Shown here one piece after another: positions 33,725-50,302 of a stretch of 64,000 bases of DNA. The notes below the pieces were generated by a model, which worked only from the letters and a program-made list of their open reading frames with translations, was not told where the DNA came from and did not search any database. This stretch comes from Schmidtea nova (Eukaryota), in the NCBI GenBank assembly GCA_044892505.1, contig CM097882.1, forward strand, positions 250,480,001 through 250,544,000, written 5' to 3'. The position numbers were made by a program, and so were the translations under genes. Within the stretch, counting starts at the first letter, position 1, and every line of letters begins with the position of its first letter.

Positions 33725-34480
33725 TTTTTTATATTAGGCTATAGAAATATTTGATAAATTTTAATTTACTTTTGGAGAAATAGAAAACCTCAGTAGCCCC
33801 CATCTTTATTTCATTGACGCATAAAATAATCTATATAGTATTATATATATGGGAATTTTAGATTTGCTTCTCAAAAAATTTTTATGCAACCTAACTGATT
33901 CGTTATAATATGCAATCTTAATTTACAATACTAATTATTGATTTTACGGTTTTAATTTTCGAGGAATTTGAAATCTGGAAAATTCTCAAAAACGAAAAAT
34001 CATTCATTTTTCTTTTTTTCAATTTAATTCGTAATTTATTGTATTATTGTTTGTGTGTAAATAAGTCTCCCTTTACTGTTCAGGTGCAGCAGACAGGATA
34101 TCATTCTCGCTAACTCTCATTAATATAAAATTCACAATTCAGATGGAGTTTACTTACACACGCAATCCGGTCTTCCGGTACCAACGGCGGTGCTCCAATT
34201 CTCATATGGAAGCTCAAGAATTCATTTCTTTCCCTTTCTCAGCTTAATCATAATTGATGTTTTATTACGACAATTAATTTATGAACTTTTTGTGAATAAA
34301 TATCGTTATAAACTTTCAATCAAGGCAAAGAGGAATTTCGAACTTTCATTTGATTCTCCGACAGTGGAATTAATTCATATTTTGGTTTTCTACTACATTT
34401 GTAAGTTTGTTTCCAGAAGATGGGATTATGCAAATTATAAAGTAAAATTTTTTATAATTTTTATAATAATAATAATAATC

Positions 34481-34515
<35 letters not shown>

Positions 34516-34538
34516 CATAATAATAATGAAAATGAAAA

Positions 34539-34925
34539 NNNNNNNNNNNNNNNNNNNNNNNNNNNNNNNNNNNNNNNNNNNNNNNNNNNNNNNNNNNNNN
34601 NNNNNNNNNNNNNNNNNNNNNNNNNNNNNNNNNNNNNNNNNNNNNNNNNNNNNNNNNNNNNNNNNNNNNNNNNNNNNNNNNNNNNNNNNNNNNNNNNNNN
34701 NNNNNNNNNNNNNNNNNNNNNNNNNNNNNNNNNNNNNNNNNNNNNNNNNNNNNNNNNNNNNNNNNNNNNNNNNNNNNNNNNNNNNNNNNNNNNNNNNNNN
34801 NNNNNNNNNNNNNNNNNNNNNNNNNNNNNNNNNNNNNNNNNNNNNNNNNNNNNNNNNNNNNNNNNNNNNNNNNNNNNNNNNNNNNNNNNNNNNNNNNNNN
34901 NNNNNNNNNNNNNNNNNNNNNNNNN
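34539..34925. other. Assembly gap (N run) after an (ATA)n tract
   Basis: Direct reading. Confidence 0.99.
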
Positions 34926-35664
34926 TTAGAATTTAGAATTTAAAAGAAAATTATATTTGGTAATTATATAAAAAATTCATGTTTTTAAGTACTTGTTTTA
35001 ATAATATTGTAAATGAAAAGGTTTTTTTAAAAATTTGCATGGTAATTGTAATTGGTTTGAATAGTATGGTTAAATGTGGAAGTTTTTGAAATTGGATTAG
35101 TACTTTTAGTTTTGTGATTATCTGTGGTGGTTAGATTTGAATTTTGCTTGTAATTGTTTTTTAAGGATAATAAAATTATAATTACTAATTATATACATAG
35201 ATTTATGATCAAATTTGCCTTATAAAATCTGACTTAAAGCTTTATAGGTAGGCAATTTGTGCTATACACTTGACTCAATGAGAGCCGCATCCAATTGTAT
35301 TAAAATGCGTGAATTAGAATGATGCGATTATTTGAATCTGGGGAATGAAAGGTACCCAAATACGATTTATGAGGTTTTATGAATTGTGATAGTGGTTATG
35401 ACTTGTGATTGTGAAACAAAGTGTGGGAAACACAGAATCGAACAAATAAATTGTCCTCAAATCGAATAGCTGATCTGAATCGATAAAATCAATATATTTA
35501 GACTGTTATTTACTAATGACGAAGGAAACGTTTTAAATAAATATCAACGAGTCAGAGATCGACTATTAATAAATTAAACAATGTCGATTTCCTGCGAAGG
35601 TACCCAGGCATAATAAATAGAGCAAATAACTGCACATCGTGACTGGTTCGGCGCTTCCAGCTCC

Positions 35665-36140
35665 TATTGCTTTCTTTATTTTCAGCTTGTTGTACCATCG
35701 TTACCATCTTTACGAGAATTATAATATTTGATGTTTCAGGTGGATAATGGATTTCATTCCACATCGTTTCAAACGTATCTAGAAACTCCTTAGAAACACT
35801 TCCGTTTGATGAACATAAAAATTTATGATGTATTGAAAAGGCTTTTTCAAGGCAATATTTACTGCAATATTTGGCACCAGACTTTTCACAATTACAAAAC
35901 GGTGATTTCAATGAGGAAATTATACAAAATTGTTTGTTAGGAACAACTAACGAACTATCTTCCGTTAACCGTTTTAAATTCTCATCAACACCCTCAAGAG
36001 GTTTCATACATTTTCGCATGCGCCGGTGCTATACCTTTTGTTCCAGGAATACTGAATCTGAACAAATAAAACTGAATCCTTTTGAATATCAGTTTCAGCT
36101 AAAAGCCCTCGTACGATTAACGGTCCAAAGAATTGTTGAG
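35665..36140 (-). pseudogene. SMYD5: SMYD5 N-terminal/MYND fragment inside the LTR-like unit (copy 1)
   Basis: RGLLAETDIQK...QYSWNKRY...CMKPLEGVDENLKRLT...CEKSGAKYCSKYCLEKAFSIHHKFLC...WNEIHYPPETSNIIILVKMVTMVQQA matches the SMYD5 hallmark W-x-x-I/V-HYPPET. Frameshifted. Confidence 0.88.
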
Positions 36141-36749
36141 ATATCATTTTCCTTGATTTTATGATTTCAATGCGATAGAACGATGCAAAATTTAAATCAA
36201 CCACTCGAAAAGAATAATTTATTTCAAAATCGAAACTCCAAAATTCAATCATAAATTAAACAAATTAAATTCCAAATCGCATTAATTAATTCCAATAGTT
36301 CGAAAAACATATATTCATCCAAAAATCCGAAATTGAAATAGCAACAAATCCATAAATGCAAAGTACAAATCAGAACTAATTCCAAGTTAAATTCCCCAAA
36401 TAAAATTACAATGAATCCCAACAAACGAATCGATTAATCCAAAAGTTAATTTCAAATCCTCTTTTATACAAAGCAATTCATACAATTCATTAATCTAACA
36501 TATTAAATTCAAAGTTAATTCTGCCAAAAACTTTTCATTAGTTCAGCCAAACCAAAATACCCAAAATCTAAAAAGTTTAATAACTTCAAATTTGGAAGAA
36601 ATGTAATTTCGGATTTTCATTGACAGTTTTCATTGAATTTAAATCACAGATTTAACATAGCAATTCGATTCCCACAATGATAGAACTTTATTTAATTTAT
36701 TCCTACCCTTTGCATCAGCCAACAAAACACACATTGAATAAATCAAGAA

Positions 36750-37179
36750 CCAAAAATTTCCCGTTACAAATATTGTCTTTCGTACAACTGCCAATCAGTG
36801 ATTGAATTGTGCTTTCCATTGTTTCGAAATTGATGTTGTAATAGTGGTTAAACATCTTTTCATTTTCTCTTCGTTGATAATAATGGATTCTGAGTTCAAA
36901 TTCTGTTGGCTTTCATTCAACTTTCCATAGTGATCGCTCTGTATATCCGCTAGGGACCTTTTCAAACTTGAAAGCCGTTTATCCATTTCCTCTATGACGG
37001 TGTAATTAGGAAAATATTCACTCTCTGAGAAATCAAAGCCATGTAAATATTGATTAGTAGATGTGTTAGTGGTGTAAGGCTTATCTCCTAAAAAATCCGA
37101 ACTGTTATGACGACTCATGTGGTTTTCACTGTCGACTTTTCGTCTTTCTTTTGATAATCTGTATTTAGTTTGCTATTGT
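36750..37179 (-). pseudogene. Distal part of an unidentified SL-linked mRNA-like fragment (continues from 40076-39942 across the hAT insertion)
   Basis: Removing the hAT and one TSD copy joins ...IDLDLSFL|HNSKLNTDYQKK in frame. ORF 36795-37118 follows. Gene not recognised. Confidence 0.5.
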
Positions 37180-37187
37180 GTAGAAAT

Positions 37188-39933
37188 TAGGGCATCCAAA
37201 ACCGGGATTCCAAAATTCGGTTTCCGGGAAACCCGGACATTTTCTGGAACCGAAAACCGAGATTGAATTTGGTAAAATTTCCCGGTTTTCGGTGCTGAGA
37301 GCAAGCATTTCTCATATTCTAAAATAAGCAAAATACTGTTCGCAGCTTAATATTTACATTACGAAATAATATAAGTACATATTTCCGTTAATAATGACTG
37401 TGAATTAAAAGATTAGTTCAAAATTAAGCCCTTCGATTACATTTGCAAATATAATTCACAGTCTCTTTAAGACAACATCAATATAATAATTAAATTTGAA
37501 TTTAATTTGATTTATTTATAACTATAACAAGTCTTTTGAAAGTATTAAATTTACTCTAAAGTTATATTGTGTTTTTTTTATATGTGAGTTTTTTTATAGG
37601 TTATATATATTGTATTTTTTATGTAGTGTTATTTTTATTGGTCACTCGGAAGGTCGGAAGTAAATCAATCAAAAGTGTCCAGTTTAATCTTTAAGGCAAG
37701 TAAAATTTTTATTATTATAGAAAACATAAAATTATAGCAAATTTTTTACAACCCAATACTAGACATGTCTATAAAAAATATCAAATTTGAGGAATGCAGC
37801 CAGCGGCTGATTGAAAAAACTCCAGTATGGGAGTATTTTCTCCGTGACAACAATTCTGGTGAGTTTGCGAAATGTAAACGATGTGATAAGCCATTGAAGA
37901 CAACAGGTGGTTCAACAAGTTCCCTCCATAAACATATTACATCTATTCACAAGATCATAGTAAAACCTGTGAAGAGATATGCTTCTGTAAGTACAGCAGC
38001 AACATCAACTGCACCACCAGAAAAGCGCAGAAATGTACACAGTTCTACGCTAACAAACTACCTCATCATTCGTGACAACACTCTTGAAGCGGTATTATCT
38101 CGTATGACAGCCGGCGATGGTTTACCATTCAGAATTTTCATTAGTTCAATTGAGATGCGCAAGTCGCTAATAGCGCGTGGATTTGAAGTTCCAAAATCAG
38201 CTACAACAATTCGAGACATGGTAATGAAATATGGAAAAATAATTCGGGAAAAGTATAAGGTTGAATTACAAGGTTTGAAATCCCAAGGAAAGCTATTTAG
38301 TCTCACTTTCGACGAGTGGACTTCGTGTAAGAACCGACGCTATTTAAACATAAATGCGCACATTAAATGTAAATTTTGGAATTTGGGACTGGTACGAGTG
38401 CGAGGATCGTTGCCTGCAGAATGCTGTATCAAACTTATTGAAGAAAGGCTGCAAATATTTGGCTTGAATTTGCATGAAGACATCATTTGCATTACAACGG
38501 ACGGTGCCGCTGTAATGCAAAAGTTTGGGGAAATATTGACCTGTAAGCAGCAACTCTGCTTCGCTCACGCAATTCATTTAGCAGTATTGGATATCCTTTA
38601 TCAAAAACCTAAACCAGCTCCAGCTGGTAACGATGACGATGACTGTATTTCAGATGGTGATGGTAATGGTGACGACGATCAAGACGAAGGATTTAATCTT
38701 GAATTGGAAGCGAATGAACCACAACTGTGTGAGAATTTTTATGATCTTATCCGCAAAATTAGAACTGTAGTCAAGCTATTTCGTAAATCACTACTAAAAA
38801 CGAAATTCTTCAAAAATACATCAAAGAAGAATTTGAAAAGGAATTGCAATTGATAATTGATGTAAAGACAAGATGGAATAGCCTTTATAGTATGCTTGAA
38901 AGATTTCGTAAATTAAAAAACAACATTCGAAAATCTTTAATAGATCTCAATTCAAGTTTTTCATTCGAAGACGAAGAGTGGAATATGATTAATGATTTAG
39001 TAACAACACTTGAACCAATAAAATTAGCTGCAGAAGCTTTATGCCGCCGAGATGCGACATTATTAACAGCTGACACGACAATTTTGTTTATGATAAACAA
39101 CCTAGGTTGCAGTGAATTTGCTCTGCAAATGAAGGACTCGCTTTGTTATCGCATAAATCAACGACGAACGAAAGTGGCTAGTTTGCTGCAATATTTACAT
39201 AAAAGCAAACAAGATTATGCGGAACTGGATCCAGACTCCGTTTTAAACTTTGAACATTTGACAAAGTCAGCGATAGCAAACATGATAATTGGCCTATCAA
39301 ATCCACTCGAAGGAAGCCAGCAGTCATCTGAGTCGGACTCAGACAATGATCTTGAAATTGGAATAGAATTGTCGTTGGAGGAAAAGCTTAACCGTGCCAT
39401 TACCAAGGATGTAAATTCCACTATTACCCCACCAACAAAAACAAATAGAGACATAACTAATGTTATAAAAAAAGAATTGGCTATTTTCGAACTGGAGGGC
39501 AATCGTGGAAAGAATCTCCAGACCTGTTATGAAAACTTGTTATCCATTCCACCTACGAGCGTAGATTCAGAGCGCGTATTTTCCAATTGTGGTATGGTTT
39601 GTACAAAAATTAGATCATCACTAAACGATCAAAGTTTAGACATTTTAAGTTTCTTACGAACACATTTTAAAACGGAAGCGCACATTTAGAGAAGCTAATA
39701 ACTTTTTATTTATTAAATTGAATTGTGTTTATTTATATATTGAATTTCTGTTATTTTATTTTTGTTCCTTTATTATAATAAAAATTATTTATAATAAAAA
39801 TGCTTTTTTACTTATAATTTATTATTTTTTTATTTACATTTTCAGCACCGGTTCCAAAACCGGGTACCCGATTCTGGAACATTCTAGCACCGAAAACCCG
39901 GTTCCAAAAAAATTCTCGGTTTTGAATGCCCTA
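37188..39933 (+). mobile_element. hAT transposon (2746 bp), near-intact
   Basis: TIRs TAGGGCATCCAAAACCG / CGGTTTTGAATGCCCTA. 8-bp TSD GTAGAAAT at 37180-37187 and 39934-39941. Confidence 0.95.
37765..39689 (+). pseudogene. hAT transposase with BED finger and a single 1-bp frameshift near 38791
   Basis: VWEYF...CKRC...LHKH, LTFDEWTS, ITTDGAAVM, CFAHAIHL, TRWNS, PPTSVDSERVFS. Restoring one C gives KSPTKNEILQKYIKEEF. Confidence 0.93.
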
Positions 39934-40076
39934 GTAGAAATGATAAATCAAGATCTATGCGAAATCCAGAAACATCTCCGTAACTTCGACTTAATCTTTT
40001 ATTATTAATAATCAAGATAAATTTGATCAATGAATGTTAGGAGCGATTGGGGAGTTACATTTGAAATATTCGTTTC

Positions 40077-40117
40077 CATATAGATTTATATAGATTTCGA
40101 TAAGACTGTCTAACGGC
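40077..40117 (-). other. Spliced-leader exon copy A
   Basis: GCCGTTAGACAGTCTTATCGAAATCTATATAAATCTATATG differs by one substitution and one deleted T from the planarian SL as recalled (GCCGTTAGACGGTCTTATCGAAATCTATATAAATCTTATATG). Not followed by a GT donor. Confidence 0.9.
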
Positions 40118-40222
40118 TTCCAGGCACGCCCCACAATCTCTCACAGCGATCAAGCACCCAAATAATTATTTTAATTATTATTTAATTAATTTTAAAAATA
40201 TTTTAAGAGCGGGCGCGATCAT

Positions 40223-40350
40223 CTCGCTTTTACATTCTTGATTGTGTCACTTGATTCAACTTCCAGGGTAATAGTTTTAACTGATAAAGTTCTCACAAAC
40301 ATCTGTATACCACCTCTACATCGTAAACCCAATTGCAAAGTTGATTCCGT
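40223..40350 (-). pseudogene. Polyubiquitin junction fragment
   Basis: [41 protein letters not shown] versus [41 protein letters not shown]. Confidence 0.88.
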
Positions 40351-40399
40351 TTTATTTTCTTTCATTCGCGGACTATGCTCTTTTAAACCTGTACTTGCA

Positions 40400-40830
40400 T
40401 CACCACTTGGCATTGAAGAAAAACACAAACATTCCGCTACTTTAGCTTCATTTACACTGTCTTCATGAATACCCACTTTAATATTTTTAGTAACTTGCTC
40501 ATAAAACTTTTTATAATTAGCTTCGTATTCTATTACTCGTTCAAAAAGTTCTAAACCTTTTCTCCCTAATTCTTTTCTGATTACTTTCAAATTCATATTT
40601 TGTTGCAACATTTCCCGGCGGATATTCAATAGAAAATCTCCACTGACATAACCGGTCCACCTACTAACCTCTACACCTTTAAATATCAACTTATCTTTTT
40701 CAATACAAATTGCTTCGTAAGCAGGTGACACAATTTCATCTCTTTGTCCACTCGACACATCAAATGAACCCTGTCTACTATCAGCATTATCAAAATCTTT
40801 AGGAAAAGCCTGCTTCTCATCGCTCTCGTA
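40400..40830 (-). pseudogene. ORF-U (post-PBS ORF), 5'-deleted copy
   Basis: Near-identical to 43313-43690. Joined to the PBS remnant through a short tandem duplication and deletion. Confidence 0.7.
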
Positions 40831-40869
40831 ACTAATGGTTCGTAACCAATGGTTCGGCGCATCCAGCTC

Positions 40870-41345
40870 CTATTGCTTTCTTTATTTTCAGCTTGTTGTA
40901 CCATCGTTACCATCTTTACGAGAATAATAATATTTGATGTTTCAGGTGGATAATGGATTTCATTCCACATCGTTTCAAACGTATCTAGAAACTCCTTAGA
41001 AACACTTCCGTTTGATGAACATAAAAATTTATGATGTATTGAAAAGGCTTTTTCAAGGCAATATTTACTGCAATATTTGGCACCAGACTTTTCACAATTA
41101 CAAAACGGTGATTTCAATGAGGAAATTACACAAAATTGTTTGTTAGGAACAACTAACGAACTATCTTCCGTTAACCGTTTTAAATTCTCATCAACACCCT
41201 CAAGAGGTTTCATACATTTTCGCATGCGCCGGTGCTATACCTTTTGTTCCAGATATACTGAATCTGAACAAATAAAACTGAATCCTTTTGAATATCAGTT
41301 TCAGCTAAAAGCCCTCGTACGATTAACGGTCCAAAGAATTGTTGA
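40870..41345 (-). pseudogene. SMYD5: SMYD5 fragment (copy 2)
   Basis: Part of the ~885-bp block 41733-40850, which differs from 36533-35644 at about 7 positions by eye. Confidence 0.88.
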
Positions 41346-42089
41346 GATATCATTTTCCTTGATTTTATGATTTCAATGCGATAGAACGATGCAAAATTTA
41401 AATCAACCACTCGAAAAGAATAATTTATTTCAAAATCGAAACTCCAAAATTCAATCATAAATTAAACAAATTAAATTCCAAATCGCATTAATTAATTCCA
41501 ATAGTTCGAAAAACATATATTCATCCAAAAATCCGAAATTGAAATAGCAACAAATCCATAAATGCAAAGTACAAATCAGAACTAATTCCAAGTTAAATTC
41601 CCCAAATAAAATTACAATGAATCCCAACAAACGAATCGATTAATCCAAAAGTTAATTTCAAATCCTCTTTTACACAAAGCAATTCATACAATTCATTAAT
41701 CTAACATATTAAATTCAAAGTTAATTCCGCCAAGATAATTAAATTAATACGAATAAACAAATCAAAAATTTTAATGTTTTTAAATTCTAAAAATTCCCCA
41801 ATAAAATCCGTTAACTCAGAAAACCAAAATCAAATCTAAAAATCTTTTCAAATTCACCAAAATCAAGTCCCAGTTTCTTTTTTAAATTCCAAAATCCCAA
41901 ATTACATTCACTGATTCATATAAACCAAATCAAAATCAATTTCTAAAAAACAAACATCAAATTAAAGTTTTACTAATCAATTCGAATAATTGATTTATTT
42001 CCATCAGCGAAATTCCCCTCTCGCGTCTGTGTGCGCACCCAAAGCCAAATAGGTATCACACAACCACCGCGCACACAGACGTTGTTGCC

Positions 42090-42264
42090 TTCTAGGAATA
42101 ATGTTTCTGTTGGAGACATTTTATGAAACTACTTTTTGTATTGATGATTTTTCACTCCTTCTTAGACCCATTAAAAGTATTCGTGGATATTCATCATTGA
42201 TAGATTGATTTTCCAAAGTATTGCTGTCGCATTGATAGTGGAAATTATCAGAACTATCCATTGT
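42090..42264 (-). pseudogene. RRAGC/D: RagC/RagD (Gtr2-type) GTPase 5' fragment, in frame with the SL-terminal ATG
   Basis: MTMDSSDNF...[21 protein letters not shown](2-bp deletion)FHKMSPTETLFLE versus [33 protein letters not shown]. Confidence 0.92.
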
Positions 42265-42307
42265 CATATAAGATTTATATAGATTTCGATAAATCCGTCT
42301 TTACGGC
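42265..42307 (-). other. Spliced-leader exon copy B
   Basis: GCCGTAAAGACGGATTTATCGAAATCTATATAAATCTTATATG. The last 28 nt are identical to the recalled planarian SL. Confidence 0.9.
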
Positions 42308-42342
42308 TTCCAGGCTTACTCGACAATCTCTCACAGCAGTCA

Positions 42343-42564
42343 AAGCTCTAGAAATGGTGAGAGAAATTCCAGCGGTTTTAGTTCTGATAGATCATTTATC
42401 TGAGATAATGTAGATTTAAGGCTCGATAAATTACTGTACCACGGATCTGACATTTCTTCTTGATAAGAACAAATTGCGTTGCCTTTCATTCTTCTTTTCA
42501 TGGCCGCCAACAATAGTGTTACTTCTAATTGAACGACATATTTAGCATCTTTCTTGCTGGTCAT
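42343..42564 (-). pseudogene. GBF1: GBF1 (Arf-GEF) N-terminal fragment
   Basis: KYVVQLEVTLLLAAMKR...QEEMSDPWYSNLSSLKSTLSQINDLSELKPLEFLSPFLE versus IYIIQGEINIVVGAIKR...DEERDPLLHSFSHLKEVLNNITELSEIEPNVFLRPFLE. Confidence 0.85.
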
Positions 42565-42579
42565 TTAGAATAGATATCG

Positions 42580-42621
42580 CATGAAAGATTTATATAGCTT
42601 TTCATAAGTCCGTTTAACGGC
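42580..42621 (-). other. Spliced-leader exon copy C (diverged)
   Basis: GCCGTTAAACGGACTTATGAAAAGCTATATAAATCTTTCATG, 35 of 42 identical to the recalled SL. Lies 15 nt before the GBF1 ATG. Confidence 0.82.
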
Positions 42622-42726
42622 TTCCAGGCTCGCCCTACAATCTCTCATAGCGATCAAGCATCCAATTAATTCTTTTAATTATTATTTAATTAATTCTAAA
42701 AATATTTTAAGAGCGGGCGCGATCAT

Positions 42727-42977
42727 CGCTCTGTAATTATGAAAAGTTTGGTGCCAAATATTGCAGTAAATAAAAAAAGCCTTTTCAATACATCATAAAT
42801 GTGTATGTTCATCAAACGTAAGTGTTTCTAAGGAGTTTCTAGATACGTTTGAAACGATGTGGAATGAAATCCATTATCCACTTGAAACATCAAATATTAT
42901 GATTCTCGTAAAGATGGTAACGATGGTACAACAAGCTGAAAATAAAGAAAGCAATAGGAGCTGGATGCGCCGATCCA
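42727..42977 (+). pseudogene. SMYD5: Truncated LTR-like 3' end with a degenerate SMYD5 fragment (copy 3, opposite orientation)
   Basis: MWNEIHYPLETSNIMILVKMVTMVQQAENKES, ending GGAGCTGGATGCGCCGATCCA. Confidence 0.8.
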
Positions 42978-42978
42978 T

Positions 42979-42996
42979 TGGTAGCAGAGCGTGGTT
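42979..42996 (+). promoter_or_regulatory. Primer-binding site, initiator-Met tRNA type
   Basis: TGGTAGCAGAGCGTGGTT, 18 nt, 1 nt after ...CCA. Same pattern as animal iMet PBS (TGGTAGCAGAG...GGTT). Confidence 0.8.
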
Positions 42997-43096
42997 CCCT
43001 TCGGGGGGCCACGCACGGCGGGTAAGCTTTTTGATTGCTTATAGCGGTCACAGCGCCGCATTATATTCTAAAATGTTTAAAATTTGAAAATTAATA

Positions 43097-43790
43097 ATGA
43101 ATTTAATGGGGGGATTTAGTGCTGTAATGGGCCCCAGCGACCATCCCCTTCCCTTAAGCTCAGTTGGGTCTGAGAATGAAAATGGTTGGTATACTGAAAA
43201 TACTTATTTGAAAAAGGTTATTAAGCTTGATGGTAGCCGTAGTAATAAATCAAGCATGCTCTTTAGTGAGAAACTTAGGGATACGTATGATAATCCCACA
43301 AAGCTTGCATGGGGTTACGAGAGCTATAAGAGGCAGGCTTTTCCTAAAGATTTTGATAAAGATGATAGTAGACAGGGTTCATTTGATGTGTCGAGTGGAC
43401 AAAGAGATGAAATTGTGTCACCTGCTTACGAAGCAATTTGTATTGAAAAAGATAAGATGAGATTTAAAGTTGTAGAGGTTAGTAGGTGGACCGGTTATGT
43501 CAGTGAAGATTTTCTATTGAATATCATCCGGGAAATGTTGCAACAAAATATGAATTTGAAAGTAATCAGAAAAGAATTAGGGGGAAAAGGTTTAGAACTT
43601 TTTGAACGAGTAATAGAATACGAAGCTAATTATAAAAAGTTTTATGAGCAAGTTACTAAAAATATTAGTGGGTATTCATTGAAGAGCGAAATGAACATTT
43701 AGGGAGATTAGAGATAGACAAAAGCATTGAAAGCCAAGAGAGAGAAGTACAGCCAGAAAGAACAATTTAACTTTGGGATGTTGTTTATCT
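43097..43790 (+). CDS. ORF-U, uncharacterised ORF in the gag position after the PBS
   Basis: 201-aa ORF 43097-43702. Comparison with the 40400 copy suggests small indels near 43670 and a native end ...[35 protein letters not shown]. No Gag motifs recognised. Confidence 0.55.
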
Positions 43791-44149
43791 GGATTAATTT
43801 TGTATATTGGGCGGAATTTTAACTTTGAATTAAATTGCTGAGTAATTTGGTTTTTTCAGATTTATTTAATTGAATAGGGTGGTGAACCTTTGAATTACCT
43901 TTGATTTTTCAAATATAAAGATGAATTAATTATGTTGAATTATTAATACTACAGTTTTAAAATAAATAAATATTCTCAACATTAAATTGCAAATCACAAT
44001 GGAGATATTTATCTAAGGGAACACGCGTTCAAAAATTATGTTCAATTAACAATCGACTACCAGAAATCTAAAGAGATAGCAAGTAAAAATTTTCTTTTTG
44101 TCGACCTAAATTACGTAGGAATTATAAAGTGAAATCTATGCAGATGATC

Positions 44150-44680
44150 AACCGAGACCCAATGAAGTATTAAGGAGACCTAAGATATATTTCCGCAACG
44201 GGATTGTGAATAAACCAGGGCTATGGCTCCTCAAGAAGGCCCCGCCTGCCGTCCATAATAATCTGTTCAAGCAATTGCGAAGATGGAGGTGTGTTTTTAA
44301 GTCCGGAGCTCCCTTAAGTCTATGGGAAAAACACAATGAAGTTCTATGGTATGAAGGAGATCCTTTATAGCCGGCTACTAATCGCGGTATCAGCGCAAGG
44401 AAATGGTTTGTCATCCTACACGACGCCGAACAAATCCCAAGATGGACGATAAACAAACTCGGGTATGTGTTACATGATCACCCTCGACATCTAGGTACCG
44501 ACGTGTACCGTGAGTTTTCGAACCTACCCTTTAAGTTTCTCGGGGAATGGCGAACAATTTCAGCTTGAACTCAAGAGATCAACATCAAAGAAATATTTCT
44601 CTACAATTCCCGATTATGCTGGACCCCAAATCCAGATATTTACCACACCAATGGAATCGCTAAGGAGGAGACCTAGCAGG
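44150..44680 (+). pseudogene. ORF-A family, copy 4
   Basis: VLRRPKIYF...KQLRRW...WYEGDPL*...RKWFVILHDAEQIPRW...KLGYVLHDHPR...KEIFLYNSRLCWTPNPDIYHTNGI, with in-frame stops. Confidence 0.75.
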
Positions 44681-45129
44681 TCCAAGATTCGACTTGCGGC
44701 GAGGCTTGCGACGATTGGATATTGGAAGAAGCGGACGTGATACGAAATCCCCGAACTGAACAACATTTAATTGTAGTATCGTGGGAAAATGCATTAATAA
44801 AATTTACTTGTGTCAGTTAAATTTTTGTTTATGTTTGTAGTATGCTGGATTGTTCGTAGGATGGGTGAAAGATAAATGAGTTTGGAAACCGAAGTGGTGC
44901 GAGAATGACGAAAAGAAGGATAACGACGGACATGAAGTGATTGATGCTAATTGATAGTATGAGTATGATTGTATGGAAATAGAATAAGGAAATATAAAAC
45001 TGACAATAGGCATGGATATAGAATCGTCGGAGGATTATTAAGTTTTATACAGGGACAATCGTCACGCTAATGAAAATAAATAAATCGAAAATTTTCCATT
45101 GATCGGTCTTTTTCATAACTTTTAGACGG

Positions 45130-46370
45130 ACAAACTTAAATTAAAAAGCGATAAGAGCGCCGAACACCAGCTACAGCGACGTATTAGGCTGCTCGAAGGA
45201 AGGATCAATCGGCAAGCATTAGAAATGGATAACTTGAGGCAAACATGGTTTAGTTCCGCCTCAATAAACGAAGTATTGCAAAGAAATGATCGTATAAAAC
45301 AAGCATTAGGAGAACAGACCGCGGAACTGTGCTACTAGATTAGAATTGAATAGATGTCTGAGAACCGTCTCAGGTGACTTCGTGGAGAAGTATTTAAAAG
45401 AGCAAATCCGCTCCAGTACCTTTGATCGATGGTGGCCAGGCAAAATGTCCGCGGACAAAATGTCACGGACAAAATGTCATGAGGACAAAATGGCACGGGA
45501 CAAAATGGCACGGGACAAAATGTCACGGACAAAATGTCATGAGGACAATCAAACTTCTTCTCCGTCAATTGGAACTGGGAACAACGGCTGGGAGGAAAAA
45601 GAAAACATACATCCGCGTCAACGAGGCATTGCATGTCATGGTGACCGACTACAACAACCGAGATCCAATCACATATTTAGGAGACATTGCACGTGTTTTA
45701 AACATTAATGTTGTTTGACTTCATTAGTTATTTTCATTGATAAAAGACTCGATTATTTATTTTTAAAAGCGTTTTTAAAATAACCTAATAATGTTATAAG
45801 ACTAAGCTATTTTATTAACTGAATATCTAACACTAAATTAATATAGGCTAGATATAATTATTATAATAAAGTTAGACTAAATTTGATAAATGCATTATTG
45901 AAATATTTTCATTGTTTTTCTGTCTTATATTTTTTTTCCGAAATTTTTTGTCTGTGAGTCCGTGACATTTTGTCCTCATGACATTTTGTCCGTGACATTT
46001 TGTCCGCGGACATTTTGTCCCGTGCCATTTTGTCCTCATGACATTTTGTCCGTGACATTTTGTCCGCGGACATTTTGTCCCGTGCCATTTTGTCCTCATG
46101 ACATTTTGTCCGTGACATTTTGTCCGCGGACATTTTGTCCTAGCACCTTGATCGATAGGTGCTGAAGAGGGCGACCACAGTTGAAACCCAAACGAATTGT
46201 TCAATAGCATCTCAACCGGTGCAGGTAGTTGAAAAGACATCATCTACTAATTCGACGAAAAGAAAGCCATAGAAACGAAATCGGCTTGGTGCCAAAAAAC
46301 GAGGGAGCGAAGTGCGTTTGCTGAAAGATTGCATATTTAAGTAGATTTACTAAGTGGGCTATCTGAGTGC
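45130..46370 (+). pseudogene. ORF-B family, copy 4, split by a MITE (tail duplicated at 49548-49780)
   Basis: QLQRRIRLLEGR...QTWFSS...LELNRCLR...QIRSSTFDR | VLKRATTVETQT...KRNRLGAKKR..RERSAFAERLHI*VDLLSGLSE. Confidence 0.82.
45431..46147 (+). mobile_element. MULE-type MITE (717 bp) with tandem-repeat TIRs
   Basis: Ends GGTGGCCAGGCAAAATGTCCGCGG / CCGCGGACATTTTGTCCTAGCACC. 9-bp TSD TTGATCGAT at 45422-45430 and 46148-46156. Arrays of GGACAAAATG units. Internal MULE C-terminal relic YIRVNEALHVMVTDYNNRDPITYLGDIARVL. Confidence 0.92.
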
Positions 46371-46734
46371 TAATGTTCTGTGGTCACACCAATCCATCAA
46401 ATAGTGTTTTGGAGTCTTTATTATTATGTCGATGTATCTCTTGTTTCATTGTATATTTTATGCACCATAATAGCTCTCGTTAGTAATGTTTGGATATATT
46501 TTTCACTGTATGTGTTTATTTGTGTCTGTTTGAATTAATAATTACTAATTTTGATTAAATAAACTAATCTGTTTGTTGATGATAATATTACATACTTTGA
46601 TTAGAGATGTGATTATCATTTAATGCCTTGTCTTATTTATATTTAATGTTGTGTAATTATATATGTAAAAATTTTGTAATACTGAATATTTTGTTATTTT
46701 TATAAATTAAAAGTTGTTTAAAATATGATGTTAA

Positions 46735-46816
46735 CCCTTTCGCGGACAATGACGTGTATACACGTCATACTACTGCGTCATACTACATCAACTAAAAAAG
46801 TGCGTCCGCGAAAGGG
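46735..46816. mobile_element. piggyBac-type mini-MITE (82 bp)
   Basis: TTAA-CCCTTTCGCGGAC...GTCCGCGAAAGGG-TTAA. The opposite foldback arm has the empty single TTAA site near 49190. Confidence 0.93.
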
Positions 46817-46994
46817 TTAAGCGGATACCACTCACGATAAATTGTAAAAAAATATATATTAGTTACTTGAAATAAAATTTAAAAGATATCTGAATTATTG
46901 AATTTTTTAATAACTAAATAAAGAGATATATTTATTCCATTCAAAAGTACCTTTGACACTTTAATTCAAAACTATAGTTACTAAATTATAAATT

Positions 46995-48095
46995 ATGGAT
47001 TCTATGATGTGTGCTTATGATAGATACTATGAATGCTTCCTAAAAACAGCTGATTATAAACTATTGAGGATATGCTTCAAATGTTTATCGACTATTGCGG
47101 AAAACAATCAACAATTCCGTAGATTGACTAGAACGAAATATCTACAAGAATCATTTGATTCGATATCCAACAGTTTTGATATAATCTCTTCAATCGAATG
47201 TGAACCATTACGTGAGGTTATGTCTGATTTGTCAGATGACATGACAATGGAAATTGTTGTCAATTACAATGAATTATGCTGTAAATTAATAGTACTGATG
47301 TTAGAGCGGGTTGATGAGAAATTGACAATGAATTGTTTGTGCAAATATGACAGCAAATGCTTAATGACTATCAAATTACTTTGCATTCATCCACATTCGC
47401 TTTTGATGGCATTTGCACACGACAATAAAGGCAAATTTTTTCAAGACCTCGCAATGATGCTGGGTATGAGTAATGATTATATAAAATGCGTTGTTTGCTA
47501 CATCTTGAATGTGCCAATTGACAAAGACCCGGGACTGGTCTCCTGCCTGAGGATGGAAGACCCATCCAGTCTACTGGTTGATATCATTATCAACCGTGAT
47601 ATCATTGCCAATCACCACCTGTGCACCAATGCGACAATTTTAATGATAATTTTTCTACGAAGCAGTGCTTCATTCCATGGATGTTTAATGGACATCGTGC
47701 AAACTTCCTTCGTAATACAAAAATTGGTTCTGACATATGATAAAGAAATTGTTTACGCGAAATACGGAATAAAAATTCCGGACTTATTACTGTCTGAAGA
47801 ATCCAATGGTGATATTGTTGCTCATTATTTCACACAGTCATCAAACGTTACAGATTACTTATTCGACCTCCTCATTACTGGTAAAAGTTTAATACCGCGC
47901 GTTATTAAATGGCTGAAGACATTTGTCAATTGTAAAATATTCTGTCAAACAAGTATTTGCGCATATGGTTTGACAAATGTCCTTCGGTGTTGCCCGAACT
48001 ATCTAGACGTACAACATGTAAAAACACAAGAATTAAAAATCGCCGTTACTAATATAAAAAATTACATTAAATATATGTTTTTATTCAAATTATAG
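46995..48095 (+). CDS. Intronless 366-aa predicted helical-repeat (ARM/HEAT-like) protein, unknown
   Basis: Long open ORF rich in Leu/Ile/Cys. No family recognised. The 5' half is duplicated inverted at 48512-49011. Confidence 0.6.
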   Translation: MDSMMCAYDRYYECFLKTADYKLLRICFKCLSTIAENNQQFRRLTRTKYLQESFDSISNSFDIISSIECEPLREVMSDLSDDMTMEIVVNYNELCCKLIVLMLERVDEKLTMNCLCKYDSKCLMTIKLLCIHPHSLLMAFAHDNKGKFFQDLAMMLGMSNDYIKCVVCYILNVPIDKDPGLVSCLRMEDPSSLLVDIIINRDIIANHHLCTNATILMIIFLRSSASFHGCLMDIVQTSFVIQKLVLTYDKEIVYAKYGIKIPDLLLSEESNGDIVAHYFTQSSNVTDYLFDLLITGKSLIPRVIKWLKTFVNCKIFCQTSICAYGLTNVLRCCPNYLDVQHVKTQELKIAVTNIKNYIKYMFLFKL

Positions 48096-48099
48096 AATT

Positions 48100-48630
48100 A
48101 TGAATGGACTAGAATCAGACAATTATATCAGCGCAATCCGATTTATTGGACAAGCATTTTCTAATAAGAAAGCCTTCAGTGGAACACTCCCTTATGAGAT
48201 CCTTCTTGGGGGATTACCCGATGATTTCGATCGACCTTTGGTTTGGCCTGGAATTCATCTTACGTTTCTATTTGGCATAACTGAGTGTATGGTAACAAAT
48301 TTCCGTAAATTGAATACAACCTATAAATATTCCAAAACAAAAGTATTATTAAATTTATTTGTAAGATTACATAAAATTAAAAGCGAGGAAACAAAAATAA
48401 AATTGATGAATCGGCAACCACACCAAAAATCAGAATACCTTGGTGTGATTTCCGGTTCATCAAAATGGTGTGGTTGCCGATTCATCAATTTTATTTTTGT
48501 TTCCTCGCATTACAACGCATTTTATATAATCATTACTCATACCCAGCACCATTGCGAGGTCTTGAAAAAATTTGCCTTTATTGTCGTGTGCAAATGTCAT
48601 CAAAAGCGAATGTGGATGAATGCAAAGTGA
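48100..48630 (+). CDS. Unknown ORF starting 4 nt after the previous stop; C-terminal part reads into the inverted arm
   Basis: ORF track. Native sequence only up to 48511. Confidence 0.4.
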   Translation: MNGLESDNYISAIRFIGQAFSNKKAFSGTLPYEILLGGLPDDFDRPLVWPGIHLTFLFGITECMVTNFRKLNTTYKYSKTKVLLNLFVRLHKIKSEETKIKLMNRQPHQKSEYLGVISGSSKWCGCRFINFIFVSSHYNAFYIIITHTQHHCEVLKKFAFIVVCKCHQKRMWMNAK

Positions 48631-50302
48631 TTTGATAGTCATTAAGCATTTGCTGTCATATTTGCACAAACAATTCATTGTCAATTTCTCATCAACCCGC
48701 TCTAACATCAGTACTATTAATTTACAGCATAATTCATTGTAATTGACAACAATTTCCATTGTCATGTCATCTGACAAATCAGACATAACCTCACGTAATG
48801 GTTCACATTCGATTGAAGAGATTATATCAAAACTGTTGGATATCGAATCAAATGATTCTTGTAGATATTTCGTTCTAGTCAATCTACGGAATTGTTGATT
48901 GTTTTCCGCAATAGTCGATAAACATTTGAAGCATATCCTCAATAGTTTATAATCAGCTGTTTTTATGAAGCATTCATAGTATCTATCATGAGCACACATC
49001 ATAGAATCCATAATTTATAATTTAGTATTATAGTTTTGAATTAAAGTGTCAAAGGTACTTTTGAATGGAATAAATATATCTCTTTATTTAGTTATTAAAA
49101 AATTCAATAATTCAGATATCTTTTAAATTTTATTTCAAGTAACTAATATATTTTTTTACAATTTATCGTGCGTGGTATCCGCTTAACATCATATTTTAAA
49201 CAACTTTTAATTTATAAAAATAACAAAATATTCAGTATTACAAAATTTTTACATATATAATTACACAACATTAAATATAAATAAGACAAGGCATTAAATG
49301 ATAATCACATCTCTAATCAAAGTATGTAATATTATCATCAACAAACAGATTAGTTTATTTAATCAAAATTAGTAATTATTAATTCAAACAGACACAAATA
49401 AACACATACAGTGAAAAATATATCCAAACATTACTAACGAGAGCTATTATGGTGCATAAAATATACAATGAAACAAGAGATACATCGACATAATAATAAA
49501 GACTCCAAAACACTATTTGATGGATTGGTGTGACCACAGAACATTACAGAGGGCGACCACAGTTGAAACCCAAACGAATTGTTCAATAGCATCTCAACCG
49601 GTGCAGGTAGTTGAAAAGACATCATCTACTAATTCGACGAAAAGAAAGCCATAGAAACGAAATCGGCTTGGTGCCAAAAAACGAGGGAGCGAAGTGCGTT
49701 TGCTGAAAGATTGCATATTTAAGTAGATTTACTAAGTGGGCTATCTGAGTGCCAACTAATAAATCTGATAGACACTAGTGTATTTTTAAAATAACTGAAC
49801 TTTGATGTGGGTGAAATGTTAGTTATTAGTCAAGCTGGGGGTTATAGCTTTTTATGTTGGCGGGATTACCCTAATTTTTACATTAAACAAATGTTTAATA
49901 TCGCCACCAACACTTCAACAGGATTATGACTGCCAACCATTCACGAGAATGGCGGTGAACAATAATCAAAAGTATGATATTTATGATGTATATGGAATAT
50001 TATACGTGGCATCTACCCTTATTTTAATAATCGCCCTGGACGATAGGGTTTTGGCAGTTAGTTTTGACCTAAACAAGTTGAAAATAAGAAAACAGAAATT
50101 AAAAACGCAATACGCAATTGCAAATGGTTATAGTACAACTGAAGTACACCTTTACTATGTTCCTGGACCAGGTCACGATGACCTGGACTTCTAACCAATT
50201 CAAGTTGCCTACCAACAACGCCACAGAATAAATGTGTAAATACAACAGACTTTATCATATGTGATTCATTTGACCTTAATTTTTGATCAATGTGATTTTT
50301 AA

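Follow-up and report, generated by a model that had tools for sequence, protein, structure and literature searches.

The window, a 64,000-nucleotide stretch of Schmidtea nova DNA (contig CM097882.1, positions 250,480,001 to 250,544,000), contains on its minus strand a whole LTR in which two copies of the host spliced leader (SL) are each followed by pieces of host genes. A preliminary description had listed a full leader, a first SL, a GBF1 piece, a leader remnant, a second SL and a RagC/D piece, and all of these are present on the minus strand. It had placed the end of the unit at 41734. This is incorrect: the unit reaches 40850, and 41733 is merely the edge of an 884-bp duplicate (35644-36527 is a copy of 40850-41733, the 3' half of the LTR, with 99.2% identity). 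The features of the locus, in window coordinates, are:

40850-42725, minus strand: whole LTR of a BEL/Pao element with TG...CA ends, bearing the stack (from sequence and family anatomy)
42622-42725, minus strand: fixed leader, 104 nt, likely the U3/promoter
42580-42621, minus strand: SL copy 1, identical to the SL RNA gene exon at 35 of 42 nt (mismatches counted by eye)
42332-42579, minus strand: 5' piece of GBF1 mRNA, starting directly after the host AG; introns of 54 and 49 nt gone, 43 nt more missing
42332-42347, minus strand: junction of 16 nt, identical to GBF1 mRNA and resembling the leader; probably where the stack founder crossed over
42308-42331, minus strand: leader remnant, 24 nt, bearing a variant seen in slot 2 only
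42265-42307, minus strand: SL copy 2
42255-42264, minus strand: 10-nt piece adjoining SL2, source gene not traced
42203-42254, minus strand: internal piece of host gene Y (gene at G000:C1:468.23 Mb)
42086-42211, minus strand: internal RagC/D mRNA piece, 41-nt intron gone, joined to gene Y via a 9-mer common to both
42024-42081, minus strand: element-borne hairpin with a 13-bp stem, common to many LTRs (fold z -2.5)
41994-41999, minus strand: AATAAA, candidate poly(A) signal, 25 nt past the hairpin arm and followed by T/G-rich DNA to about 41400
40881-41396, minus strand: second cargo region, part of a host gene that weakly matches MYND (E 0.06)
40850-40880, minus strand: fixed 3' end of the LTR
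40222-40849, minus strand: internal remnant with deletion, holding a degenerate PBS, an HSP90 piece and the start of ubiquitin
39935-40221, minus strand: second LTR, truncated, with other cargo; SL at 40077-40117, lower end approximate
42722-43700, plus strand: inverted neighbour, comprising the 3' end of another LTR (to 42977), a tRNA-Met PBS (42979-42996) and a gag remnant

Both gene names given in the preliminary description were upheld. The host exon of GBF1 matches yeast Gea2 chains (E 2e-4) and the next host exon matches Pfam DCB at E 4e-5, under the curated cut-off, while the Rag piece matches Gtr1_RagA over 29 aa (E 8e-4, under cut-off) and also aligns to the host gene found via the Gtr1_RagA family. 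The supposed 175-nt RagC/D cassette does contain RagC/D but consists of three pieces, of 10 nt, 52 nt (gene Y) and 126 nt (RagC/D); RagC/D is not the cargo of SL2, as the 10-nt and gene Y pieces precede it. Similarly, of a truncated leader given as 34 nt, 24 nt are unambiguous leader, whereas the first 10 lie within the 16-nt stretch identical to GBF1 mRNA. The two leader-SL copies do differ as described, being about 82% alike over 73-74 nt, and so are not a recent tandem duplication. The 43 nt missing from GBF1 at 42347 nearly correspond to a cryptic GT..AG intron, one base off, and may reflect a deletion or aberrant splicing.

An inverted piece of the same family lies head to head with the stack LTR; the locus is rearranged. 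The two LTRs of the window element are unlike each other, the second being truncated, and no target site duplication (TSD) is visible for the window LTR copy. A hAT DNA transposon (zf-BED, hAT dimerisation) at 37738-39935 appears to truncate the second LTR. Further along, 46166-49755 is a large inverted duplication whose arms (364 and 516 nt, 99-100%) enclose an ORF that received no Pfam name; direct repeats of 208 nt flank the duplication. An Rfam scan of 34000-47000 gave no match for the SL and a single weak match elsewhere in the stretch (E 0.3).

A BEL/Pao family with the spliced leader in its LTR

The last 26 nt of the SL have 900 exact matches in the genome, compared with none for a reversed control. 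Among 38 matches to the SL plus GT, three are SL RNA genes and 35 are LTRs. The 42-nt SL found in LTRs is the exon of the three SL RNA gene copies, in which the exon ends in ATG directly before GT, and the SL RNA folds with a z of -4.0. We take the SL to resemble that of planarians; it is identified here by the SL RNA gene of the genome itself. Derivation of the leader from a captured SL-gene promoter was ruled out, as the DNA upstream of the SL RNA genes differs.

Between SL-bearing LTRs that are 99.94% alike in one copy, we found DUF1759, RVT_1, Peptidase_A17, Integrase_H2C2 and DUF5641. This is the BEL/Pao domain order (DUF1759, RT, Peptidase_A17, integrase, DUF5641), the coding region of that copy being spread over three frames, and the family is BEL/Pao as assigned by its domains. 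Its LTRs start with TG and end with CA. A 5-bp TSD flanks 25 of 27 solo or complete units; many TSDs lie within AAT repeats and so carry little weight, and seven are clearly informative and plainly non-microsatellite. The primer binding site (PBS) after 5' LTRs is the complement of 18 nt of the 3' end of a genomic tRNA-Met, and a polypurine tract (PPT) lies ahead of 3' LTRs and before 31 of 198 LTR starts. Twin LTRs with common cargo occur in seven elements (98.3-99.95% alike), and stacked LTRs occur as twins in three elements (99.4-99.8% alike). Among 20 elements fetched via the purine tract, four have unlike LTRs, three have matched twins and the rest have no 5' LTR in reach. Most copies seen have internal deletions.

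The LTRs are 1.0-2.6 kb long, and only roughly their first 146 nt and last 20-30 nt are fixed. Their fixed parts are the 104-nt leader, the host SL and about 30 terminal bases, with intron-less pieces of host mRNA between them. Past the recurrent hairpin, A(A/T)TAAA occurs in 43 of 74 LTRs and stands at 24-26 nt in 31 of these 43. A search with the leader-SL sequence returned 1921 first-look candidates, of which 40 were scored.

Several other features of the family were observed. Ahead of gag, and in frame with it, stand an HSP90 piece and a complete ubiquitin (40222-40849 in the window; L119 and L238 for the family internal region), so the coding region too carries host captures. A second cargo zone lies just ahead of the fixed LTR end in six clusters among 39 ends (window 40881-41396; L025, L120, L142, L165) and holds sense-strand gene pieces without an SL. 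We take these to be PP1-, proteasome-alpha- and SMYD-like, the window piece presumably resembling SMYD5. A target preference is suggested by the 76 of 198 LTR starts that lie within AAT or TA microsatellites. Two LTRs 2.8 kb apart (L217 and L218), with the same cargo and each preceded by a purine tract, form a tandem element. At G000:C1:510.09 Mb (L241), tRNA-Met genes are repeated in tandem every 458 bp. The 17-nt tRNA-end pattern occurs 1060 times in the genome, in part as PBS remnants; two other loci with the pattern were rejected as tRNA genes, no tRNA being present there, and the one inspected is a PBS remnant.

Host mRNA pieces in the LTRs

We assembled a larger SL set in which 318 matches were reduced to 278 by removing duplicates and matches with less than 150 nt of flank; this census is GBF1-enriched by design. 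It comprises 198 full-leader SLs, 76 slot-2 SLs and four others, and falls into 63 cargo clusters. Thirty SL matches taken in order of position yielded 25 cargos. In all three genes traced among the 63 clusters (GBF1, RagC/D in another LTR and gene Y in another LTR), the SL-adjacent cargo begins directly after a genomic AG. In L061, RagC/D was captured at an AG slightly inside the apparent start of the reading frame (L074:1290-1305), which suggests a minor acceptor. Two introns are gone from the GBF1 piece of the stack, one from RagC/D and one from a gene with an SH3 domain. Judged from its sequence, the cargo is evidently mature SL-joined mRNA, and the earlier claim that pieces of SL-trans-spliced mRNA were captured within the LTR is supported to that extent. 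In a sample of four runs from one study, possibly the assembly's own, in which read contigs cover introns and behave as DNA, intron-less SL-joined GBF1 reached a depth of 376-518, compared with about 12 for introns.

Gene Y, which presumably resembles a TBC-domain gene, received no name in a database search, and the search with the MYND-like piece of the window returned nothing beyond its weak match. In about half of 40 copies with the same slot-2 start, gene Y continues, and where traced it joins the spliced SH3-domain gene. Pieces are thus also gained without any SL. Microsimilarity was found at the switches between GBF1 and leader (16 nt), gene Y and RagC (9 nt) and gene Y and the SH3 gene (5 nt); none was evident at the RagC 3' end or at the 10-nt piece.

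In the host genome GBF1 is located at G000:C2:263.24 Mb, and the RagC/D gene lies upstream of it on the same chromosome and strand, at C2:263.01 Mb. Gene Y and the SH3 gene are on other chromosomes, and clustering of donor genes was therefore unsupported. A shared chromosome and strand would be expected if GBF1 and RagC/D had come from one native operon transcript, an origin that the preliminary description had itself raised. The two genes are, however, 230 kb apart and in the opposite order to the pieces, the introns are gone from the pieces, and GBF1 and RagC/D are separated in the LTR by a leader remnant, an SL and part of a gene from another chromosome. The host gene positions refute an operon origin, to which we attach practically no probability. 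The same description had also raised one fixed cassette order in all copies; on inspection, cassette content varies among copies. That the RagC/D and GBF1 donor genes are so close, with a GBF1-stack LTR (L142) between them, is likely chance.

Order, age and probable exchange of the stacked pieces

The preliminary description had proposed that the stack grows by iterative, polarised addition: new SL-mRNA cassettes would repeatedly enter at the leader and push older ones distally, loosely as in spacer acquisition, so that distal cassettes would be shared among copies and leader-proximal ones variable. We found the reverse. All 77 truncated leaders in a first set of 250 SLs have GBF1 upstream, and slot 2 holds 15 different cargos in 76 stacks, nine of which were seen away from slot 2 as well. 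The 250 SLs include no unit with three SLs, and 121 non-GBF1 LTRs, each read for at least 800 nt downstream, include no stack; the sole non-GBF1 flag, L192, was rejected as a second leader, being a twin LTR behind a PPT. The 30 position-ordered matches contain a single stack, again with GBF1, and the one pair of SLs less than 1.5 kb apart among the first 100 matches listed is also a GBF1 stack.

Dating by divergence from the host genes, as had been suggested, likewise ran counter to such growth. In stacked copies, the proximal GBF1 piece is the most diverged (4.9%, 73 copies), compared with distal pieces of gene Y (0.8%, 37 copies), RagC/D (0.8%, 19 copies) and the SH3 gene (3.6%, 18 copies), and GBF1 exceeds RagC/D in 17 of 17 paired copies; since copies are not independent, this contrast rests on few capture events. 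The age order is opposite to that of spacer acquisition, the proximal GBF1 being both older and fixed. In favour of polarised addition, the stack does exist, and a leader remnant between two cassettes fits the insertion of one new piece on the leader side of it, but this founder geometry apparently arose once. With one fixed proximal cargo, a variable distal slot, the reversed age order and no further stacking, iterative addition is largely refuted, and we regard it as very improbable.

The exact sequence of the stack junction has 58 genomic matches, compared with none for a control; like the 900 SL matches, this is well beyond chance. Stacks have one junction only, where GBF1 resembles the leader: a leader-like stretch lies about 290 nt into the GBF1 mRNA, and the junction has the GBF1 version over 16 nt, behind the 43-nt gap. 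Scored against 52 natural leader variants, GBF1 reached a mean of 12.0-12.9, the best of 62 other cargos 11.7 and the median 8.75; GBF1 ranks first in leader likeness, with a modest lead. Two longer GBF1 captures that are not stacked retain the 43 nt, one without a leader (L166) and one with a full leader (L167), and unstacked GBF1 LTRs share two or three of the seven common differences from the GBF1 gene.

A leader variant absent from the 198 slot-1 leaders precedes ten different slot-2 cargos in 57 of the 76 stacks, which points to exchange after stacking, within about 55 nt. The other 19 stacks have an ordinary leader remnant, so some either are early branches or had their crossover upstream of the slot-2 variant. 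Slot-2 cargos are mixed within supported GBF1 sub-clades; the GBF1 tree has little resolution (seven of 72 inner branches starred) and was used for supported mixed clades only, and its one long row, L227, is a rearranged copy. The slot-2-only variant and the mixed sub-clades together argue for exchange at SL2 after a single stacking event. These results suggest that the GBF1 stack likely arose once, its second slot then being swapped many times: the second SL works as a second exchange site, and the stack itself is a one-off recombinant.

Possible routes of capture and relation to known systems

We consider it quite likely, from these sequence comparisons, that a BEL/Pao LTR with the host SL at a fixed site acquires cargo when its RT switches template to co-packaged SL-capped mRNAs and returns through the SL, that the GBF1 stack formed once by chance homology and that slot 2 was exchanged many times. 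Minus-strand synthesis would quit the element RNA for a host mRNA at a short homology, reach the SL at the 5' end of that mRNA and re-anneal to the element at the 42-nt SL of its 3' LTR, so that old cargo would be replaced rather than added to. In the stack founder, synthesis about 25-40 nt into the leader would have crossed, once, to a GBF1 template at the 16-nt likeness. That template may have been mRNA or a GBF1-bearing LTR, and the product would have been leader-SL-GBF1-remnant-SL. SL2 would then have served as a second return site at which the cargo behind it was swapped and GBF1 kept, and more switches at microhomologies of 5-9 nt may have added internal pieces such as RagC/D. As a map of such crossovers, the per-position mismatch of the SL gave a weak result (0.10 at positions 1-16 and 0.07 at 17-42, in 38 clusters); variants of the 5' half of the SL that are common to six or seven cargos are a hint only.

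An extension of this route, which we hold as a tentative possibility somewhat short of an even chance, is that the host SL is the R region of the element. Transcription would then start from the SL behind a 104-nt U3, and cDNA running off the SL of a co-packaged mRNA would complete a normal first-strand transfer, so that capture would need one illegitimate jump only. A fixed 146-nt start, a 20-30-nt end and a recurrent hairpin with a poly(A)-like hexamer fit a short U3 followed by an R that begins with the SL.

Cargo might also be captured as we propose while the stack and the slot-2 swaps arise mainly by DNA recombination or gene conversion between integrated LTRs. A possible partner exists in L167, the unstacked GBF1 LTR with a full leader; nine of the 15 slot-2 cargos are found elsewhere, elements with unlike LTRs exist and the window copy is rearranged. 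The recurrence of those nine cargos and the elements with unlike LTRs suggest that recombination at the DNA level or between elements accounts for part of the shuffling. As the main route it is nonetheless unlikely: crossovers within about 55 nt of homology or at 5-9-nt microhomologies would fit template switching better, the near-identical stacked twin LTRs of three elements and units with intact TSDs indicate that stacks are at least propagated through RNA, and six slot-2 cargos have no occurrence elsewhere in the sample, which is incomplete. SL-targeting LINEs are known, namely NeSL in nematodes, and this, together with the single start site of all slot-1 cargo, counts for retrocopying of SL-mRNAs by LINE machinery or an SL-targeting endonuclease, with insertion into existing LTRs. 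Against that route, the captured pieces are 5' or internal ones, the cargo ends inspected had no noticeable poly(A) tail or duplication, junctions have microhomology and twin LTRs have common cargo; we judge it even less probable than iterative addition. Template switching with return through the SL accordingly remains our preferred reading.

In CRISPR spacer acquisition, the newest unit lies beside the leader, and the array has a repeat-cargo-repeat look behind a leader, which the S. nova stack shares. The S. nova stack differs in that there is no repeated addition, the age order is reversed, cargo is replaced rather than accumulated and no acquisition enzyme is needed beyond the element's RT. 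If the proposed route is right, a retrotransposon would use the one sequence common to a large class of host mRNAs as a built-in recombination adaptor, making capture routine and not rare, and the cargo would be a datable record of the mRNAs packaged in germline particles. If, in addition, the SL is R, the family would amount to a genomic library that renews itself and holds 5' ends of trans-spliced mRNAs from the germline or stem cells; element RNA would begin like host mRNA, and this may hide it from piRNA silencing or direct silencing at donor genes. A practical consequence is that LTRs, which make up 35 of the 38 genomic SL matches examined, can mislead the annotation of SL genes, operons and retrogenes.

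The element would also give genomic SL relics an identified vehicle; the question of such a vehicle is open in dinoflagellates and was set aside in parasitic flatworms. In the accessible text on dinoflagellate relict-SL retrogenes, serial SLs mark mRNA-derived DNA, the same gene being recycled and re-trans-spliced with no identified mobilising element (PMC5585692, PMC3229502); in S. nova a different gene follows each SL, inside an identified LTR. For parasitic flatworms, the available sections of PMC12582326 set aside 597 partial SL loci at LTR/LINE repeats, which the authors read as integrated trans-spliced transcripts of the elements. These loci share with ours an SL sequence linked to retroelements in a flatworm genome, those sections describe no host cargo or LTR anatomy for them, and related cases may be hidden among them. 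Cer1 of C. elegans is an LTR element whose spliced subgenomic mRNA receives SL1, and, unlike in the S. nova element, the accessible account describes no SL in its LTR DNA (PMC3315495).

We found no published description of an LTR with a built-in SL and host cargo; subscription papers, Repbase/Dfam, theses and supplements may hold a family consensus, and a word search of PMC11410931 and PMC8532177 gave no occurrence of "spliced leader", and PMC10899757, PMC2770079 and PMC9911081 yielded nothing further. The element resembles other BEL/Pao members in its DUF1759 gag, RT, Peptidase_A17, integrase, DUF5641, TG...CA ends, PBS, PPT and 5-bp TSD, and differs from them in a mostly unfixed LTR, an SL inside the LTR and HSP90 and ubiquitin pieces before gag. 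LTR-mediated retroposition by template switching at microsimilarity is, according to the portion of PMC5131818 available, a published mechanism for LTR retrocopies, whose examples include a chimera of two genes in BATUMI, a Pao element, and a return site that is fixed in BLASTOPIA. Shared with those retrocopies, as far as that portion describes them, are partial intron-less mRNA pieces, microsimilarity at junctions, multi-gene chimeras and non-autonomous spread. In the cases given there, which are few, cargo stands in place of internal ORFs, whereas in S. nova it lies inside both LTRs, is of dozens of types and occurs in pol-bearing copies too, and the capture site is set by a host-wide 42-nt tag common to all trans-spliced mRNAs. 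The position of the cargo within the LTR itself, and not between LTRs, makes this a variant of LTR-mediated retroposition, and we conclude that the element represents a new route of gene capture and not a CRISPR-like ordered record.
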